Shown here: piece after piece, positions 45,941 through 53,570 of the stretch
Layout of the letters: each line of letters begins with the position of its first letter
How positions within the stretch are numbered: position 1 is the stretch's first letter
NCBI GenBank assembly: GCA_963810615.1
Contig: CAWEOA010000001.1
Location: 119,297 to 183,296, forward strand
From: an uncultured Gammaproteobacteria bacterium
Lineage (GTDB): Bacteria; Pseudomonadota; Gammaproteobacteria; DRLM01
Direction of reading: 5' to 3'
DNA: 64,000 nt
Notes under the pieces: model-generated
What the model was told of the DNA's origin: nothing
Databases searched by the model: none
The model's input: the letters and a program-made list of their open reading frames with translations, nothing else
Program-made: the position numbers and the translations under genes

Positions 45941-46188
45941 TCGCATAAAACAAATATTATTCAAAGAGTTTTTTCATTTCTGTTGGGAGCGTGCCGACCA
46001 CTCGGTCGGTCTAATATTTCCAAATCTTACATCTGCGTGAATGTCCGGTTGACTTTATGCGGATATCACTAGAATCTAATAACTAATAATAGGTACTTAA
46101 GAATAAAAATTGGCCAAACCCAGTGGGGTATTTGGCGGGGGGAGGGGGCTGGTGTCAGATATGACGCTCCGGCCCATGAGGGTCAGTT

Positions 46189-49100
46189 ATGCGTGATCAA
46201 AACGACGAGAAGAGGCTTTCCGCCGGGCTGGGAGCGGGCACTATTTCGCTTGCCAAACTCAGTATGCCCCGCTCGGCAAAAGGTATTGTGCGGCCGCGCC
46301 TGCATAACATACTGGATGAGGCGCGCACAAGCAGTGCGGTGTGGATAGTATCCCCGGGCGGTGCCGGCAAGACCACGCTGACCGCCACCTATATCGCGGA
46401 ACGGCAGCTCCCCTATCTGTGGTATCAGATGGATAAGGACGATGCCGATCCCGCTACCTTTTTCTACTATCTTGGCTTGGCGGCCAAGCAGAGCCGGCCG
46501 GGTCAAGAAGTGTTTCTACCGCTGCTGACTTCCGAGTACCTCCACGACATTCCGGGTTTTGCGCGCCGCTATTTTCGTCAACTGTTTGCCTTGTTACCGC
46601 GCAAAAGTGTCGTGGTGCTGGATAATTACCAGGATCTCTTGAGTGCCGACGTGATAAATGAGGTGCTGCGCAATGCCATCGGCGAGCTGCCGGAGGGCAG
46701 CAATATCATTGTTATCGGCCGTAGCTCTCCGCCGCCTGTATTGGCGCGCTTGCAAGTGACCGGTGAACTGGAGATCATTGCCTGGGAGGATTTGTGCTTC
46801 AGCTACGATGAAACCGAAGCGATAGTCAGAGGGAATGACAGAAGCCTGGACACAAAAATCATACGCACGCTGCATAAGCGTTCGGAAGGCTGGGTCGCGG
46901 CATTGACCCTGATGTTGAAGCAGATTGGGAAAAAGCGTACGGAAGAGCAAAGTGTAGGGCTAGAGTCCCTGGAGCGGATATTTGATTTTTTCGCCAGTGA
47001 GTTTTTCGATGAGCTGCCGGATGCTACCCGTGATTTCCTGTTGCAAACTTCGCTATTGACGCATATTACGCCGAGTATGGCGGTTGCGGTGAGCGGGAAT
47101 AACGATGCCGGCAAGATACTCGCTACCCTCCATCGGCAGCAATTTTTCACCAGCCGGCGGGATTTGTCCGAAGTTACCTATCAATATCACGCCTTGTTCC
47201 GTGAATTTCTGATGGCAAGGGCCGTTGAGACCTACACCCGAGAACAATATCTCGAACTGACGCGCAGGGTGGGAAACTCGCTCGAAAAACACGGTCGCGA
47301 AGAGGAGGCCATTGCACTTTATCTTCAGTCCCAGGCATGGGCGGAGGCCGGAAGATTGATCCTGGTACAGGCGCCGCAACTGCTTGCTCAAGCCCGGGCG
47401 CAAATCGTCGCGGGTTGGCTACAATGCCTGCCCGAAGAAATACTGATGGCGACACCCTGGTTGTTATATTGGCGAGGTATCAGCCAGCAGTGCGTCAATC
47501 CATTCGAGGCGCGAGCGACGCTGGAGCAGGCCTATGCGAGTTTTGCGGATGATGGGGATGTTTTAGGGCAATTGTGCGCAGCATCCGCCATCATCGATAT
47601 CATATTTTTCGTAAGAGAAAGCCTGCTGTCCACCACCCGCTGGATCGAAGTGCTGCAAAATTCCCTTGCGATGCATTTGAAATTTCCTTCCGCGCAGATT
47701 GAGGCCCGCATCATATCTAGCCTGTTTTCGGTGTTGATGTACATTCGTCCCCAGGAACCACAGCTGCCGATTTACGCTGAGCGGCTCATGATATTGCTCG
47801 ATGAAGATTTGGAAATGAATCAGAAGGTGATGATTGGGGCGCATCTCGTCAATTATTACTCCCACGCGCTTGGCGATCTCAGCGCCTGCGAGCGCATCAG
47901 TATGCGCATCACGCCTGCGCTGTCTTCACCGCAGGTCACGCCCGTCACACAGATGATGTGGAGATGTTTTAACGTGCTGCCAAACCTCCTGAGCGGCGAG
48001 GATGAGCTGGCTTATGAATTGGTTCGTCCACTGCCGGCGCTGATAAAGGAAAATAATCTGCCATTCATGGGGCTGCTTGCGAAATTCTATTTAATACTCG
48101 TGAATATATATCGGGGAGATATGCGCGGCTCGCAACAGCTACTGGAGCGTATGTCGACAGTGATGAATACATCCCAACCCGCCGATGTAGCCTGGCTCTG
48201 TTTGGCCAGATGTTGGTATGCCTTATCGAGAGGCGATTATTCCACGGCACACAACCAGGGCCAGGCTTCATTGCAGGTTATTTCCAGCGTGGGTGCCACG
48301 CTCACAGAAATTGATGTCAGTTGCCTCATCGCGCTTGAGCGCATCCAAAGCAAAAAATATGACGAGGCCCTAGGTTACCTGGCCATGCCCCGTAAACTGG
48401 GCTTTGCCCATAGTCCGCGCATCCGTCATCAAGTGTTATTAGTTGAGGCCTATTCATATTTCCGGCAGAGTAATAGTCCGAATGGCCTCGAGCGCCTTCG
48501 GGAGGCCTTCGCTATCGGGAGCAATGAAAACTACTTTGGCAGTATCTATTGCTGGTTCCCGAAAGAGGTGATGACGCGACTTTGTTCCGAGGCGCTGAGA
48601 GCCGGTATCGAAGTCGAATATACGCAGCGCTTGATTTCCATTCGCAAGCTACTCCCCGACGATCCGTACATGGAGGACTGGCCATGGCCCATCAGAATTT
48701 ATACCTTGGGGTCTTTCAGGTTGGTTATTAACGGTCAGTCCCATTCTTTGGAGGGCAAAGCCCAGTACAAGCCGCTTAAGCTGCTCAAAATCTTGGTGGC
48801 CTTAGGTGGTCAGGAAGTGAAAGAAGAAAAAATAAGTGAGTTACTGTGGCCAGATGCCGAGGGAGATGCGGCCCATTCCGCATTTACCACCACCTTGTCG
48901 CGCCTGCGAAAATTGCTCGGCGACGACACGGTCGCCGTTAAAAACGGGCGATTGAGCCTGAATAAACTGCGTTGTTGGGTGGATGTCTGGGTCCTTGAAG
49001 AGCAGCTTGATCAACTGCAAATGACTAGTGCCGATCAGATGGAGCTGCGAACGCTTGTGGATAAAATCATTGCCCTTTATCGGGGGCCGTTCATGAATGA

Positions 49101-49413
49101 TGAGGATGGGATTTGGGTGGAGCGGTTGCGGCAGCGTCTACAGTCGGTGTTTTTCCGTTTCATATTGCACTATGGCCGAACCCTGTCCGTGGAGCATGCC
49201 GATGAGGGTCAAGTTGCTCGATCAGTCGAATTGAGCGCGGCATTTGATCCATGCGCGGATGATTTTTATCGCAGTCTCCTGACCAGCTATACAGTTATGG
49301 GCCAGAGAGCCGAGACGCTTGATGCTTATTCTCAGTGTCGTGAGATTCTCACTCGTGATTTTGGGGTCATTCCTGCCGATGTGAATAAAATCTTCCGCGG
49401 TAATTCAGATTAA
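46189..49413 (+). CDS. MalT-like STAND NTPase with helical/TPR sensor and C-terminal wHTH-BTAD (SARP-like) regulator
   Basis: SPGGAGKTT, VLDNYQD, SEGWVAAL, YQYHALFREFL; C-terminal IYTLGSF, LLWPD, LSRLRK, LYRGPF and BTAD-like tail. Confidence 0.85.
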   Translation: MRDQNDEKRLSAGLGAGTISLAKLSMPRSAKGIVRPRLHNILDEARTSSAVWIVSPGGAGKTTLTATYIAERQLPYLWYQMDKDDADPATFFYYLGLAAKQSRPGQEVFLPLLTSEYLHDIPGFARRYFRQLFALLPRKSVVVLDNYQDLLSADVINEVLRNAIGELPEGSNIIVIGRSSPPPVLARLQVTGELEIIAWEDLCFSYDETEAIVRGNDRSLDTKIIRTLHKRSEGWVAALTLMLKQIGKKRTEEQSVGLESLERIFDFFASEFFDELPDATRDFLLQTSLLTHITPSMAVAVSGNNDAGKILATLHRQQFFTSRRDLSEVTYQYHALFREFLMARAVETYTREQYLELTRRVGNSLEKHGREEEAIALYLQSQAWAEAGRLILVQAPQLLAQARAQIVAGWLQCLPEEILMATPWLLYWRGISQQCVNPFEARATLEQAYASFADDGDVLGQLCAASAIIDIIFFVRESLLSTTRWIEVLQNSLAMHLKFPSAQIEARIISSLFSVLMYIRPQEPQLPIYAERLMILLDEDLEMNQKVMIGAHLVNYYSHALGDLSACERISMRITPALSSPQVTPVTQMMWRCFNVLPNLLSGEDELAYELVRPLPALIKENNLPFMGLLAKFYLILVNIYRGDMRGSQQLLERMSTVMNTSQPADVAWLCLARCWYALSRGDYSTAHNQGQASLQVISSVGATLTEIDVSCLIALERIQSKKYDEALGYLAMPRKLGFAHSPRIRHQVLLVEAYSYFRQSNSPNGLERLREAFAIGSNENYFGSIYCWFPKEVMTRLCSEALRAGIEVEYTQRLISIRKLLPDDPYMEDWPWPIRIYTLGSFRLVINGQSHSLEGKAQYKPLKLLKILVALGGQEVKEEKISELLWPDAEGDAAHSAFTTTLSRLRKLLGDDTVAVKNGRLSLNKLRCWVDVWVLEEQLDQLQMTSADQMELRTLVDKIIALYRGPFMNDEDGIWVERLRQRLQSVFFRFILHYGRTLSVEHADEGQVARSVELSAAFDPCADDFYRSLLTSYTVMGQRAETLDAYSQCREILTRDFGVIPADVNKIFRGNSD

Positions 49414-49499
49414 AATTAATTTCGTCCTGGAGTTCCCGGCCTCATTCAAGCGATCCTGCCCCGCATCGTTACGTACCTTTTCCAATTGGCTTTTTGGCC

Positions 49500-49539
49500 G
49501 AATCGTGTGATCTATTTGTGACTTTCCATGTGGTATAGA
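49500..49539 (+). promoter_or_regulatory. TGTGA direct-repeat promoter, copy 1
   Basis: GAATCG TGTGA tctatt TGTGA ctttcca TGTGG TATAGA; repeats start at 49506, 49517, 49529. Confidence 0.65.
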
Positions 49540-49756
49540 GGTGGGAATGAGGCTGCATTATTTTAATAGTCTCGCGGCGATGCGAATAATTGCGGGCGAG
49601 GGGTGAGGGCAACTGTTCGGATGGTGAGCAAAAAGGTTGCGCCCTTCAATTTCAGACCAGGTACTTGGATGGCATTCCGGCGCTGAAAATGTGGTGGCCT
49701 TGCGAGGCGCTAATTTTTTATATCTAGGCGAGATGTGTATAAGCAATACGCCAAAT

Positions 49757-50479
49757 ATGGCTATGAATGAAGCGTTAACGGCAAAGATCATGCGCCCGCG
49801 CTTTGCACGGGCTCATCGGCGCAGTGATCTGCTTGGTTTGCTGGATGTATTGAATCCGGCGCGGTTGATCATAGTCAGTGGTTTGATCGGGGCGGGGAAA
49901 ACGGCGCTGGTCAGTAGTTACGTCGAGACTAGAAATGTGCCTTGCCTGTGGTATCAACTAGACCGGAATGACGAGAACCTTGTCAATTTCTTCGCTTTTA
50001 TGAGCATGGCGGCAGCCGCTGTCCAGCCGCGAAAGAAAGACGAGGTGCCGCTGGCTTCACCGGAATGCACCGTGGGTGTATCGATGCATGTGAAAAGTTA
50101 TTTTCGCGACTTATATCAATTTCTGGAATCGCCGTTCTTTGTGGTTTTTAACAATTGCCAAGAATTGCGGGTAGATGGGCCGTTGCTGGGGGTATTACGG
50201 GACGCTTGCGATGTGCTTCCGGCAAATGGTCGTATGATCATGATCAGCAGCAATGAAAATCCTCCGACGTTGGTGTGGTTACGGACCAATTGTTCGGTAA
50301 TCACAGTTGGCTGGCAGGAGCTGCGCCTCGATCCCAATAAGTTTGAAAATGATGCAGTCCTGAACGCGCGAGCCCTACCGACCGACGAAGCTGCCAAGCG
50401 ATTACGGCGCATGGTTGGTAATTGGGCGGCGGAGCTGCTACTGGACTTGCAGTCCTCGCTCAACGGCGATAGCAATTAA
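49757..50479 (+). CDS. NTPase-only MalT-like STAND paralog 1 (degenerate Walker B)
   Basis: AKIMRP, GLIGAGKT, LWYQLDRNDENLVNFF, FVVFNNCQE; ends after VGNWAAEL; start uncertain (49733/49757/49763). Confidence 0.8.
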   Translation: MAMNEALTAKIMRPRFARAHRRSDLLGLLDVLNPARLIIVSGLIGAGKTALVSSYVETRNVPCLWYQLDRNDENLVNFFAFMSMAAAAVQPRKKDEVPLASPECTVGVSMHVKSYFRDLYQFLESPFFVVFNNCQELRVDGPLLGVLRDACDVLPANGRMIMISSNENPPTLVWLRTNCSVITVGWQELRLDPNKFENDAVLNARALPTDEAAKRLRRMVGNWAAELLLDLQSSLNGDSN

Positions 50480-50716
50480 TCTATTCAAAATATATTACAG
50501 GTCGTGTTGATAGCCTATTTGCCAAGTCGAATCACCATGAATTCATGAGCGCTCTATTCACTGTGTTCACAACTTTATCTTTACTCCTTGAGTCTGCGAG
50601 TTAAAATTTATAATGACCTTGCTGCGCGGCTTTTATCCGGCATTCAATTTCACAGTTTTGACATTAAGTGAGTGATGTCATTTGCACGTAAGCGGCATAG
50701 CGTGATGTTATATCGG

Positions 50717-50757
50717 GAATCGGTGTGACTTTTTTGTGACCCATTTTGTGATATGTA
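50717..50757 (+). promoter_or_regulatory. TGTGA direct-repeat promoter, copy 2
   Basis: GAATCGG TGTGA cttttt TGTGA cccattt TGTGA TATGTA; repeats start at 50724, 50735, 50747. Confidence 0.65.
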
Positions 50758-50888
50758 TGGAAAACACTACATGCTAAATCTGGGGGTCAATTATCCAAGA
50801 GAGAAGGATTTGGTTTCAATGATCATCGGCGGTGACGCGGCATGCACTTTGCATTGTATCCACATGATAGCTCAATGGAGGAAATATC

Positions 50889-51686
50889 ATGAGTATGTGG
50901 TGGCGCAATATCATCGACCCCGTATTGGTTTCCGGCAAGACTAATCCTCGTGTAAATAAGGGGATAGGTATGAGAGGGAAGAAAGTGATACTCACCAAGG
51001 TCACGCGACCCCGTCTACAACTTACTTACCCACGCACTGATTTGTTCAATTTGCTGGACGAGTTAAGTGCAACGCCATTAATCATGGTTAACGGCTTGCC
51101 TGGCTCCGGTAAAACTACCCTGATGTCGAGTTATATAGAAACTCGTAATATCCCGTGTCTGTGGTTTCAAGTGGATCGCAATGACCAGGACCTGTCTACA
51201 TTCTTTTATTATCTTGGAATTGCCGCGCTCAGAAGCAATCCCTATAACAAGGCCGCCTTGCCTCGAGTTTCCCCCGAACGAGTCTTTAAGGTGGCTTCGG
51301 TGGCAAAGGAGTACTTTCAGAAGCTTTATCAATGTCTTGAACCTCCCTTCATGATTGTGTTGGATCAATATCATGAACTTCCCGCAGATGCCGCGTTGCA
51401 CGATGTGATAGCAGAAGCGTGTGTAGCACTTCCTCCGGGGGGGCGGATCGTATTGATCCGCAACAGTGATTGCCAAGCGAATGTCCCCCGTCTGCGCACT
51501 CAGCGCACGGTCGCCACCCTCGGTTGTGAAGAACTGCAACTGAGTCCGGGAGAAGTTAGAGAGATTGCGGCTTTGCACGGGGTGAGATTACCGTCCGAGC
51601 AGGCGGCCAGGCAGTTGCAGGCCAAAGTGGATGGCAGGGCGGCGGGACTTGTCAATGAGCTGAAAAGGGAATTTCTGCCCCAATGA
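50889..51686 (+). CDS. NTPase-only MalT-like STAND paralog 2
   Basis: TKVTRP, GLPGSGKTT, LWFQVDRNDQDLSTFFYYLG, VLDQYHE; ends after VDGRAAGL; GGAGG RBS. Confidence 0.82.
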   Translation: MSMWWRNIIDPVLVSGKTNPRVNKGIGMRGKKVILTKVTRPRLQLTYPRTDLFNLLDELSATPLIMVNGLPGSGKTTLMSSYIETRNIPCLWFQVDRNDQDLSTFFYYLGIAALRSNPYNKAALPRVSPERVFKVASVAKEYFQKLYQCLEPPFMIVLDQYHELPADAALHDVIAEACVALPPGGRIVLIRNSDCQANVPRLRTQRTVATLGCEELQLSPGEVREIAALHGVRLPSEQAARQLQAKVDGRAAGLVNELKREFLPQ

Positions 51687-52477
51687 AAGGACTTCACCAT
51701 GTATCGGATTGGATTTAGGGCGATGCGTTGGAGTGCTCGCCGGATATCCGATCACTTACAGGTGACGGTTCAGATAGCGGGCATTTCAATCGGTTCGTTA
51801 AGCGCGGGAGTGGGCGCCGGTGACGCTTAGTGGCAGAGTGTTCAGGCGCTTGCAGGGGTTATGTACGGCCGTAATAGGGTCTTTCAGATCTGGCGCCTGG
51901 TATCGTTAGTTTGTCGATGCAGAGTTTCTTTTAGCCGCCTGTTGATACCAATATCTGGCTCGTTCTTTATCCTTTATCAACCCTAACCACCCCTCTTGGT
52001 AGGCATGAGCAAGGAATTCCTGCGCAACCGCATTGCCGTTTGAAGCAATTTTATATAACCATTGTGCAGTATCATTATTATGCACTGTGGGATGCCTTAA
52101 GCTATTTCACCTTATTATTCTATAGATTGTAGCCCGGGAATTAATTACCAAAGCCTGAATAGGCCCCACGGATGCCATGCATACTGCGATATGGCCGTTT
52201 GGGCGTTGCGGGGACGTCGACATTTCAGTGCGATATGGGCTTGTCGCTCTCATATGTGCCGCTAGTACACGGCATCTGGTCTCGCGCCAAATGGCTTCCG
52301 TCTCCGCGATATGGGTAAGGGTACCAGTCCTAGGCTCAGCCATCATGGACGGGTGCCGGGGTGTGTAAACTCCATGGTGAGCGGCACGAATATTACCTAT
52401 AAATGTCCCTGTGTTACTTTATTTTGCCCAGTGGCTTGTTGTTGGGGCAGACAACGCTTATTCTATTGCCCCTTCCG

Positions 52478-52570
52478 GGAGAGGTACCGAAGTGGCCATA
52501 CCGGCACCGACTCGAAATCGGTTGGGGGCTTTACCGCCCCACGTGGGTTCGAATCCCACCCTCTCCGCCA
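52478..52570 (+). tRNA. tRNA-Ser(CGA)
   Basis: Acceptor stem GGAGAGG/CCTCTCC-G-CCA, anticodon arm ACCGA-CT-CGA-AA-TCGGT, long variable arm, GGTTCGAATCC. Confidence 0.97.
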
Positions 52571-53222
52571 TACCCTCGATGATTCACTTACTTTGATTGG
52601 TCTGCCGCACGGGGATTAGAACCCTCGTGGAAATCAATTATCCTGGTTTGACGACCGAGCGGATTTTGCGAGGGAGCACGTCGTCCCTAAGAGGTGGATA
52701 GGAATCCTCCCGTATCCTGAACCGAACTGTTCGGTTTAACGAAACGCATGGCTCATAAAATTAATTCGACGCTTGGCAGGTCGAACGCTCTAGGTCGGCT
52801 CATGCCTTGTTGCGTATGGGTATACGGGCGTTCCGGCTTTCTGGGTATCTTGAGCAGAGTCCGGCTTCAAACTGTCCCAATATATCTGCACAAAGGTGAA
52901 GTTGGTTGGCAGAACGTAGTGTAGGGAAGTCTTGAATCATGTTAAACATGACAATCAATATGGTATTAATCTTCCAGTTCATGGGGCGTTGTGGACGCTT
53001 GCTGTATAGAAGCGTTCATGCATCATGACGGGAAAGTGTGGATAAACCTTTGCTTATCGCCTCCAAGCGGCCGTTGTCGAACAATCACCCATCTGAATTC
53101 TGAACCGAGTCTTACTCGAGGGGTCTAATTCGCACCGAGACTCTGCAGCGGTTGTGTGGAGCCTGTCGGAATTGGTTGTAGCATGCGCGCTTTATTGTGC
53201 AAGAGATAAAGGAGACAGGCAT

Positions 53223-53570
53223 ATGAAAGTTATCTGGAAGAATGTGATATGTATGCTGGCGGGTTTGTGGTTGTGGTTATCTCCCTTTATTTTACAATTC
53301 AAGTTGGGTTCACACGCCTCCAGCGATGCAAATATCGTGGGGATCTTTATCGGGACCTTATCAATGATGGCGATTGCGACGCCACAGGTCTGGGAGGAAT
53401 GGACCAAGGTGGTATTGGGTGTCTGGTTGCTTGCCTCTCCCTGGCTGCTGGGCTTCAGCCATCAAACTGTGGCCGCAGACAATATTATGCTCGTAGGTTT
53501 GGTGGTGGTGATTCTGTCCTTGTGGTCTCTGGCTCGGCGTTCAATGCCGCAGCCGCTTACTAATAGTTAA
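53223..53570 (+). CDS. SPW repeat membrane protein
   Basis: GLWLWLSPFIL and GVWLLASPWLLGF repeats; AAGGAG RBS. Confidence 0.88.
   Translation: MKVIWKNVICMLAGLWLWLSPFILQFKLGSHASSDANIVGIFIGTLSMMAIATPQVWEEWTKVVLGVWLLASPWLLGFSHQTVAADNIMLVGLVVVILSLWSLARRSMPQPLTNS

Follow-up and report, generated by a model that had tools for sequence, protein, structure and literature searches.

In a 64,000-nucleotide stretch of contig CAWEOA010000001.1 (hereafter the window), from an uncultured gammaproteobacterium of the lineage DRLM01, two short genes, P0002 and P0003, lie downstream of the gene for a full-length STAND regulator, P0001, in the same orientation, and their products correspond only to the N-terminal nucleotide-binding domain (NBD) and helical domain (HD) of that regulator. 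Our comparisons with relatives show that the short genes make up a real family under purifying selection, that they are linked to the regulator gene, and that they have a conserved putative promoter of their own, with repeats predicted to lie over the −35 region. The reading we favour, to which we give slightly less than an even chance, is that the products of these genes are pseudo-NTPase subunits which, once induced, act back on the oligomerisation of the STAND regulator; we infer both the contact of the short proteins with the regulator and the sign of its effect.

The layout described in a first-pass annotation of this DNA holds: a 1074-residue regulator precedes two same-strand open reading frames (ORFs), both of them intact and free of internal stops. 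That annotation had also judged the short ORFs to be selected rather than decayed, a judgement that we can support because their closest homologues are themselves short, no remnants of the missing C-terminal domains lie downstream, the ratio of nonsynonymous to synonymous substitution rates (dN/dS) is low, and the gene neighbourhood is kept.

The short genes form a conserved family under purifying selection

A search with P0003, restricted to proteins of 145–464 residues, returned 84 matches; the 52 that share 50–94% identity with it are 171–341 residues long, and 44 of these fall between 236 and 284 residues. Relatives of P0003 (hereafter P3 type) share both the N-terminus MSMWWRNII... and the C-terminus ...LKRECLPQ. 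For P0002 (P2 type), eight of the ten orthologue clusters listed (61–88% identity) are 238 residues long, the others being 262 and 248 residues, and there is in addition a 209-residue fragment. The lengths and termini of the short genes are fixed down to about 50% identity. An exhaustive profile search against 1.84 billion representatives gave 20,505 matches at E ≤ 0.001, headed by three proteins of 238–268 residues (369–482 bits), which were followed by a 1049-residue protein (314 bits) and then by a very large family of ~1070-residue proteins. The closest homologues are therefore short rather than all full-length, and the short form is a narrow lineage within a very large family of full-length proteins. 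Of the 61 genomes that were searched, 12 belong to the window's own family, and three of these carry short-clade genes (the window's genome, G000, together with G002 and G005; here and below, G, C and L numbers denote genomes, contigs and loci); the 49 genomes of other families have none. A scan of genome contigs with a single short protein gave no match, and an alignment-based scan gave 80 loci at ≤42% identity, nearly all of them full-length.

Remnants of the C-terminal domains were sought in all six frames of window positions 49400–53200, using tblastn with P0001 and with P0088, a second full-length paralog (word size 2, E up to 10), as well as a profile hidden Markov model of 36 full-length relatives run with --max. 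Neither approach detected any such remnant in this region, and only the two N-terminal matches were returned. In most relatives, tRNA-Ser lies ~80–400 nucleotides past the short gene, so that there is no room for lost domains. The genome also holds no orphan gene for the winged-helix domain (WHD), sensor and SARP module, as residues 233–1056 of P0088 match only P0088 itself, P0001 and one weak TPR stretch.

By the method of Nei and Gojobori (NG86), six P3-type genes compared in all 15 pairs give a dN/dS of 0.16–0.35 (dS 0.04–1.1); the ratio is 0.18 for P0002 against its counterpart in L119 (dS 1.24, near saturation), and 0.135 for the P2-type pair of L118 and L120. These values, spanning 0.13–0.35, are not near 1 and resemble that of the neighbouring regulator, for which P0001 and its L107 orthologue give 0.245; the value for P0088 is 0.09. 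Two members of the family depart from the common form: the P3-type gene of L109 has an altered C-terminus and encodes 304 residues, and the N-terminal extension of the L113 short gene is interrupted by a stop.

In a maximum-likelihood tree built from 118 N-domains, 17 short genes group in a single clade (SH-aLRT support 90), which divides into a P2-type subclade (seven rows, support 99), containing P0002 and the one short gene that G002 and G005 each have, and a P3-type subclade (ten rows, support 96), containing P0003. The short clade joins that of P0088 (SH-aLRT 99), a 1056-residue protein encoded on another contig of the same genome, and the P0001 clade lies elsewhere in the tree. The short NBD-HD regions are 50–57% identical to P0088, versus 30–33% to P0001, the N-domain of P0088 being 52% identical to P0003. 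The initial description of the short genes as paralogs of their neighbour's N-terminus must be amended accordingly: in the tree their sister is P0088, and their catalytic motifs are degenerate. Forcing the short and P0001 clades together was not rejected by an approximately unbiased (AU) test (delta lnL 16.4, p-AU 0.35), so descent of the short genes from the P0001 lineage is also compatible with the data.

Truncated copies outside the short clade, in G001 (L018/L025), L093 and L099, look like independent truncation events, and their existence, like the loss of several catalytic residues in the short clade, would suit the idea that the short ORFs of the window are decaying partial duplications or halves of a split STAND gene; this idea is nevertheless largely refuted by the low dN/dS, the fixed lengths and termini, and the lack of both C-terminal remnants and an orphan C-terminal gene, and we reject it as very improbable.

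The expectation that the neighbourhood would be conserved with full-length STAND-BTAD genes is likewise borne out. Among 15 loci with short genes, a P0001-type gene lies directly upstream in seven and not in two, the contig ends of the remaining six being too near the short gene for the upstream neighbour to be judged. This neighbour is found in the window, in G005 (L023) and in L107, L112, L118 and L119, and L114 shows its BTAD end only. L119 carries the full trio at 65–74% identity, and L111 has both short types. L107 lacks exactly the segment corresponding to window positions 49478–50580 and keeps the P3 type alone, and G005, G002, L118 and L120 keep the P2 type alone, indicating that lineages keep one short gene or more and differ in which one they keep.

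Domain architecture of the regulator and the short proteins

The NCBIfam MalT model matches residues 22–430 of P0001, and Pfam models place Trans_reg_C at residues 861–914 (E 8e-4, under the gathering score) and BTAD at residues 931–1063 (49 bits, cut-off 22). Sequence matches in the PDB are to MalT (8bob, residues 22–423) and to the SARP domain of AfsR (8hvr, residues 823–1063). In an AlphaFold2 model (pLDDT 84.7, pTM 0.68), the N-loop is followed by the NBD, the HD to residue ~248, a low-confidence linker at residues 251–256, the WHD and arm to residue ~433, an all-helical repeat sensor at residues 438–819, an OmpR-type winged helix-turn-helix (wHTH) at residues 835–931 and the BTAD at residues 932–1058. 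P0001 hence possesses a complete nucleotide-binding oligomerisation domain (NOD), made up of NBD, HD and WHD, and the OmpR-type wHTH followed by a BTAD that is characteristic of a SARP. The MalT-type NTPase, helical sensor and wHTH-BTAD output first read from the sequence of the 1074-residue protein are confirmed by these domain and structural models. No GerE/LuxR helix-turn-helix (HTH) was found in P0001 with Pfam at E ≤ 0.1, and the protein scores 183 bits against the MalT model, whose equivalog cut-off is 537. Because it has no LuxR HTH, carries its SARP module at the C-terminus and scores far under that cut-off, P0001 is best described, from its sequence, as a MalT-like NOD and sensor combined with an AfsR-like output, and as a strict member of neither family. 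P0001 and P0088 are the sole strong BTAD proteins in the genome, two further weak matches being ordinary TPR proteins.

Both short proteins align with the N-terminal part of P0001 only, residues 22–244 of which match residues 49–272 of P0002 in its 280-residue numbering (30% identity, E 2e-25) and residues 9–245 of which match residues 21–260 of P0003 (32% identity, E 2e-36); P0002 and P0003 share 41% identity (E 1e-62). The EGWVAAL motif of P0001 aligns with GNWAAEL and DGRAAGL in the short proteins, and both ORFs stop 8–14 residues beyond it. Their ends fall ~5–8 residues past the end of the P0001 alignment, at the HD/WHD linker of P0001, so the N-terminal match and the shared end just past this helix, as initially noted, coincide with a domain linker in the regulator. 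An AlphaFold2 model of P0003 (pLDDT 75, pTM 0.75) shows a five-stranded NBD with 3–4 closing helices, residues 1–30 being disordered; its best match in the PDB is MalT (8bob_C, E 1.5e-10, TM 0.69, 228 columns), and the short-family profile aligns to MalT residues 5–221. In MalT, the NBD spans residues 1–181, the HD 182–248 and the WHD 249–336 (PMC10427625). Ending as they do at the HD/WHD linker, without a WHD, the short proteins lack a complete NOD, and they also lack a C-terminal repeat sensor.

Motifs were compared between the short clade and 87 full-length or contig-cut relatives, in which the positions lost from the short clade are invariant. Within the N-loop, the short clade keeps the Lys (15 of 16) as well as the RP motif. 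Its Walker A Lys (GxxGxGK[ST]) is present in all 16 rows that cover the column, as in 87 of 87 full-length rows. The Walker B Asp, by contrast, is found in 13 of 17 short versus all 87 full-length sequences, and the sensor-I Arg in only 2 of 17 versus 87 of 87; P0001 and P0088 have both. Across P2-type orthologues, the Walker B position is an invariant Asn (11 of 11 alignment rows, the window's copy counted), and P0002 combines an intact Walker A with this Asp-to-Asn replacement and a replaced sensor-I Arg. The motif set ascribed to both short ORFs at first therefore holds for the N-loop and Walker A, but an intact Walker B is present in P0003 only. The short proteins are degenerate NTPases that have lost residues required for ATP sensing or hydrolysis, and from this pattern we infer that they would bind nucleotide without sensing or hydrolysing it.

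Searches with PADLOC defence models yielded only weak matches at the level of the P-loop (best E 2e-7, mad8) and none for P0002, and a defence system (Avs or similar) was rejected for this reason.

The N-terminal peptide of the P3 type (window positions 50889–50978, residues 1–30, MSMWWRNIIDPG...) is conserved yet predicted to be disordered, and its synonymous divergence is below that of the remaining coding sequence. It might serve in docking, or it might reflect a constraint at the RNA level. The leader of P0002 contains, at positions 49689–49697, an out-of-frame ATGTGGTGG (M-W-W) that recalls the MSMWW start of P0003; P0002 may once have had an N-terminal extension too, of which this would be a trace.

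Putative promoters and a candidate regulon

Upstream of P0002, a TGTGAT-N5-TGTGAC direct repeat (49506–49522) is separated by 11 nucleotides from the hexamer TATAGA (49534–49539), which is preceded by TG, and upstream of P0003, three TGTGA repeats (50724, 50735 and 50747) with a spacing of 11–12 nucleotides precede TATGTA. The pattern TGTGA-N5-7-TGTGA occurs three times in the window, versus 0.40 expected (none of 100 shuffles reached three), and all three matches, at 49506, 50724 and 50735, lie upstream of short genes. In relatives, the direct repeat, with the consensus TGTGAC-NNN-TTTGTGAC, is found upstream of 13 of the 15 short genes versus none of five full-length genes; elsewhere in the 13 loci (~157 kb, both strands), it was found once only, upstream of P0088 in the window's own genome. 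A TAnnnn hexamer, mostly preceded by TG, lies 11 nucleotides past the second repeat, a position that would put the repeats at about −40 to −24. The P3-type repeat block, including its third TGTGA, is invariant in seven loci despite diverged flanks, as is a GGAGG placed 7 nucleotides before the ATG at 50889.

SARP dimers bind direct repeats on one face of the DNA, overlapping the −35 element (PMC11301090), and by analogy P0001 or P0088 may bind the TGTGAC repeats. A CRP site was rejected, the repeats being direct and not inverted. A terminator-like hairpin at 50707–50729 was discounted, since part of it falls within the repeat block and the aligned loci do not conserve its stem.

Genome-wide, the motif TGTGAS-NNN-TTTGTGA has four matches, versus none for a reversed control. 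One of them is the region upstream of P0003. The others lie 166 nucleotides before an HDOD-GGDEF gene, encoding a diguanylate cyclase (G000 C2:852063, L133:4064), 151 nucleotides before a CARDB/DUF642 gene (G000 C7:86892, L134:3893), and 945 nucleotides before P0088 (L005:9169-10113, G000 C3), with no convincing ORF in between. In the congener G004, this motif also occurs 163 nucleotides upstream of the HDOD-GGDEF orthologue (66% identity). Judged from these sites, the motif-bearing genes may form a small regulon that ties the STAND regulator to cyclic di-GMP (c-di-GMP). The orthologous loci L115 and L116 are without the motif upstream of P0088, and the long stretch between motif and gene could be a leader or an unannotated RNA.

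Possible modes of action, gene context and precedents

In STAND proteins, the WHD locks the protein in an ADP-bound closed state. In the reading we favour, the activated STAND-SARP regulator would oligomerise and switch on the short genes together with the small regulon that includes the HDOD-GGDEF enzyme. The short proteins, having no WHD to close them, no sensor and no DNA-binding output, would be permanently 'open'; they would join the NBD-NBD interface of the full-length activator and cap, dilute or reshape the oligomer, the most likely net effect being negative feedback. In its most specific form, this would be a self-limiting STAND circuit, in which pseudo-NTPase versions of the activator's oligomerisation module, made at its own command, co-assemble with it and cap the oligomer, and in which the P2 and P3 types may address two regulators and provide a link to c-di-GMP; we regard this full scheme as possible but doubtful. 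Complex prediction from alignments of P0001 residues 1–440 with P0003 residues 31–265 scored 0.00 in two uncontrolled runs and speaks neither for nor against binding.

Several observations weigh against feedback of this kind. The GW motif of the HD is relaxed in the short clade, with Gly in 8 and Trp in 11 of 17 sequences. G002 (L024) has an intact short gene and motif without an adjacent full-length gene, and its only P0001-like sequence lies ~214 kb away and contains three frame changes (L128:6495-9486, C2), which could mark a pseudogene or long-read assembly errors. In the metagenomic locus L113, the short gene has neither a P0001-type neighbour nor the motif. The partner is ambiguous too, since the short NBDs are nearer to P0088, yet no P0088-type match was obtained from two relatives that carry short genes. 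OmpR-family response regulators likewise bind 11-nucleotide direct repeats, and another factor, such as a member of that family, could own the TGTGAC sites.

A short gene persists in G002 although no intact regulator gene adjoins it, and in L113 although there is none at all, which could also mean that the short proteins are neofunctionalised small P-loop outputs of the regulon, acting off the STAND oligomer, for example on the HDOD-GGDEF enzyme or through the WWRN peptide. The divergence of their catalytic and GW motifs from every full-length relative would fit such a role, and stand-alone AAA_16 proteins of 220–290 residues in other phyla provide a lead only; since the P0001-type neighbour is kept in seven of the nine loci that can be judged, however, and the N-loop and overall NBD-HD fold are retained, we consider this explanation somewhat unlikely.

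Feedback of the opposite sign, in which the short NBD-HD proteins seed or stabilise regulator oligomers, or join P0001 to P0088, seems to us quite unlikely. Proteins without the WHD that enforces the closed state could nucleate assembly, the N-loop residues needed for MalT oligomerisation are kept (PMC10427625), and the existence of two diverged subtypes would allow a bridge between two distinct full-length proteins. Yet an oligomer seeded by subunits without DNA-binding domains would lose valency, many lineages keep one subtype only, and P0088-type matches were lacking in the two short-gene-bearing relatives mentioned above.

The three genes stand in the order guaB, guaA, a gene of the cytidine/adenosine-deaminase family, P0001, P0002, P0003, tRNA-Ser(CGA) and an SPW-repeat gene (Table 1). 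The maximal ORF of P0002 (49637–50479, plus strand) has 280 residues when counted from a TTG, but an ATG at 49757 or 49763 is most likely the start, because the database copy and eight of the ten listed orthologue clusters have 238 residues.

Table 1 Features of the STAND locus, in window coordinates
Feature	Position	Strand	Remarks
Full-length STAND-SARP regulator P0001	46189..49413	+	1074 residues; domain models, AlphaFold2 model
Putative promoter/operator of P0002	49506..49539	+	Repeat and TATAGA; same layout at 13/15 short genes
First short gene P0002 (P2 type), NBD-HD	49757..50479	+	240 residues from ATG 49757, 238 from 49763
Putative promoter/operator of P0003	50724..50757	+	Block invariant in 7 aligned loci
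Ribosome-binding site GGAGG before P0003	50877..50881	+	Invariant columns in 7 loci
Second short gene P0003 (P3 type), NBD-HD	50889..51686	+	265 residues; 30-residue N-terminal extension, then N-loop, NBD, HD
tRNA-Ser(CGA)	52478..52570	+	Conserved downstream neighbour of short gene(s) in relatives

The G+C content is 0.46–0.54 across window positions 46000–53500, versus ~0.60 in the flanks, and P0088, on another contig, is similarly low (0.54, versus 0.60 for guaA); the entire STAND gene set is therefore compositionally atypical. The 790-bp spacer between P0003 and tRNA-Ser (51687–52477) is 82–88% conserved in the metagenomic loci L106–L108, and in other relatives the spacer here is only ~80–400 nucleotides long. 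A minus-strand ORF of 59 residues at 51906–52085 carries a single Sel1 repeat (E 1e-9).

Among known systems, MalT of Escherichia coli, with its inhibitors MalY, MalK and Aes, shares with P0001 the order of N-loop, NBD, HD, WHD, arm and helical sensor, and the best matches come from it (the NCBIfam MalT model and PDB 8bob). MalT oligomerises through NBD-HD surfaces and the N-loop, of which residues K6 and R19 are required, and an inhibitor acts by masking these surfaces (PMC10427625), which is the kind of action proposed here for the short proteins. P0001 differs in its output, a C-terminal OmpR-type wHTH and BTAD in place of a LuxR-type HTH, and its proposed modulators are NBD-HD paralogs, whereas those of MalT are unrelated enzymes.

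AfsR, the main target of which is the small regulatory gene afsS, and the other Streptomyces SARPs resemble P0001 in joining a wHTH and BTAD to TPR-like repeats and a STAND NTPase. The promoters that they control also carry direct repeats, spaced by ~11 nucleotides and overlapping the −35 element (PMC11301090). In P0001, however, the SARP module is C-terminal rather than N-terminal and the NTPase is of the MalT type; the repeat is TGTGAC, and its downstream copy ends 11 rather than 8 nucleotides before the putative −10 element. The putative targets here, moreover, code for truncated NTPases of the class to which the regulator itself belongs.

The nearest functional precedent, by analogy, may be the plant truncated NLR protein NRG1C, which is reported to antagonise its full-length neighbours NRG1A and NRG1B (bioRxiv 10.1101/2021.01.27.428547). 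In both cases, a truncated paralog of an oligomerising STAND/NLR protein is encoded beside full-length genes. NRG1C is truncated at the N-terminus and keeps C-terminal parts, whereas the short proteins keep only the N-terminal NBD-HD; it also acts in immunity, whereas the present case would concern bacterial transcription control. A literature search that fell short of most subscription journals found no bacterial NBD-only STAND paralogs, in line with the first-pass annotation, which did not recognise a described system here.

STAND/NLR proteins of all kingdoms signal through nucleotide-driven oligomerisation, and the question of how cells determine how large such assemblies grow and how long they last is still mostly open. 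The locus offers a compact, testable system for it, comprising a sensor-activator, one or two degenerate NBD-HD-only paralogs, a repeat operator and a small candidate regulon. Short ORFs annotated as 'AAA ATPase' or 'MalT-like' beside large regulators should accordingly be tested for selection before being called fragments. If the proposed self-limiting circuit is real, the truncated-NLR antagonists of plants would gain their first counterpart in bacteria.

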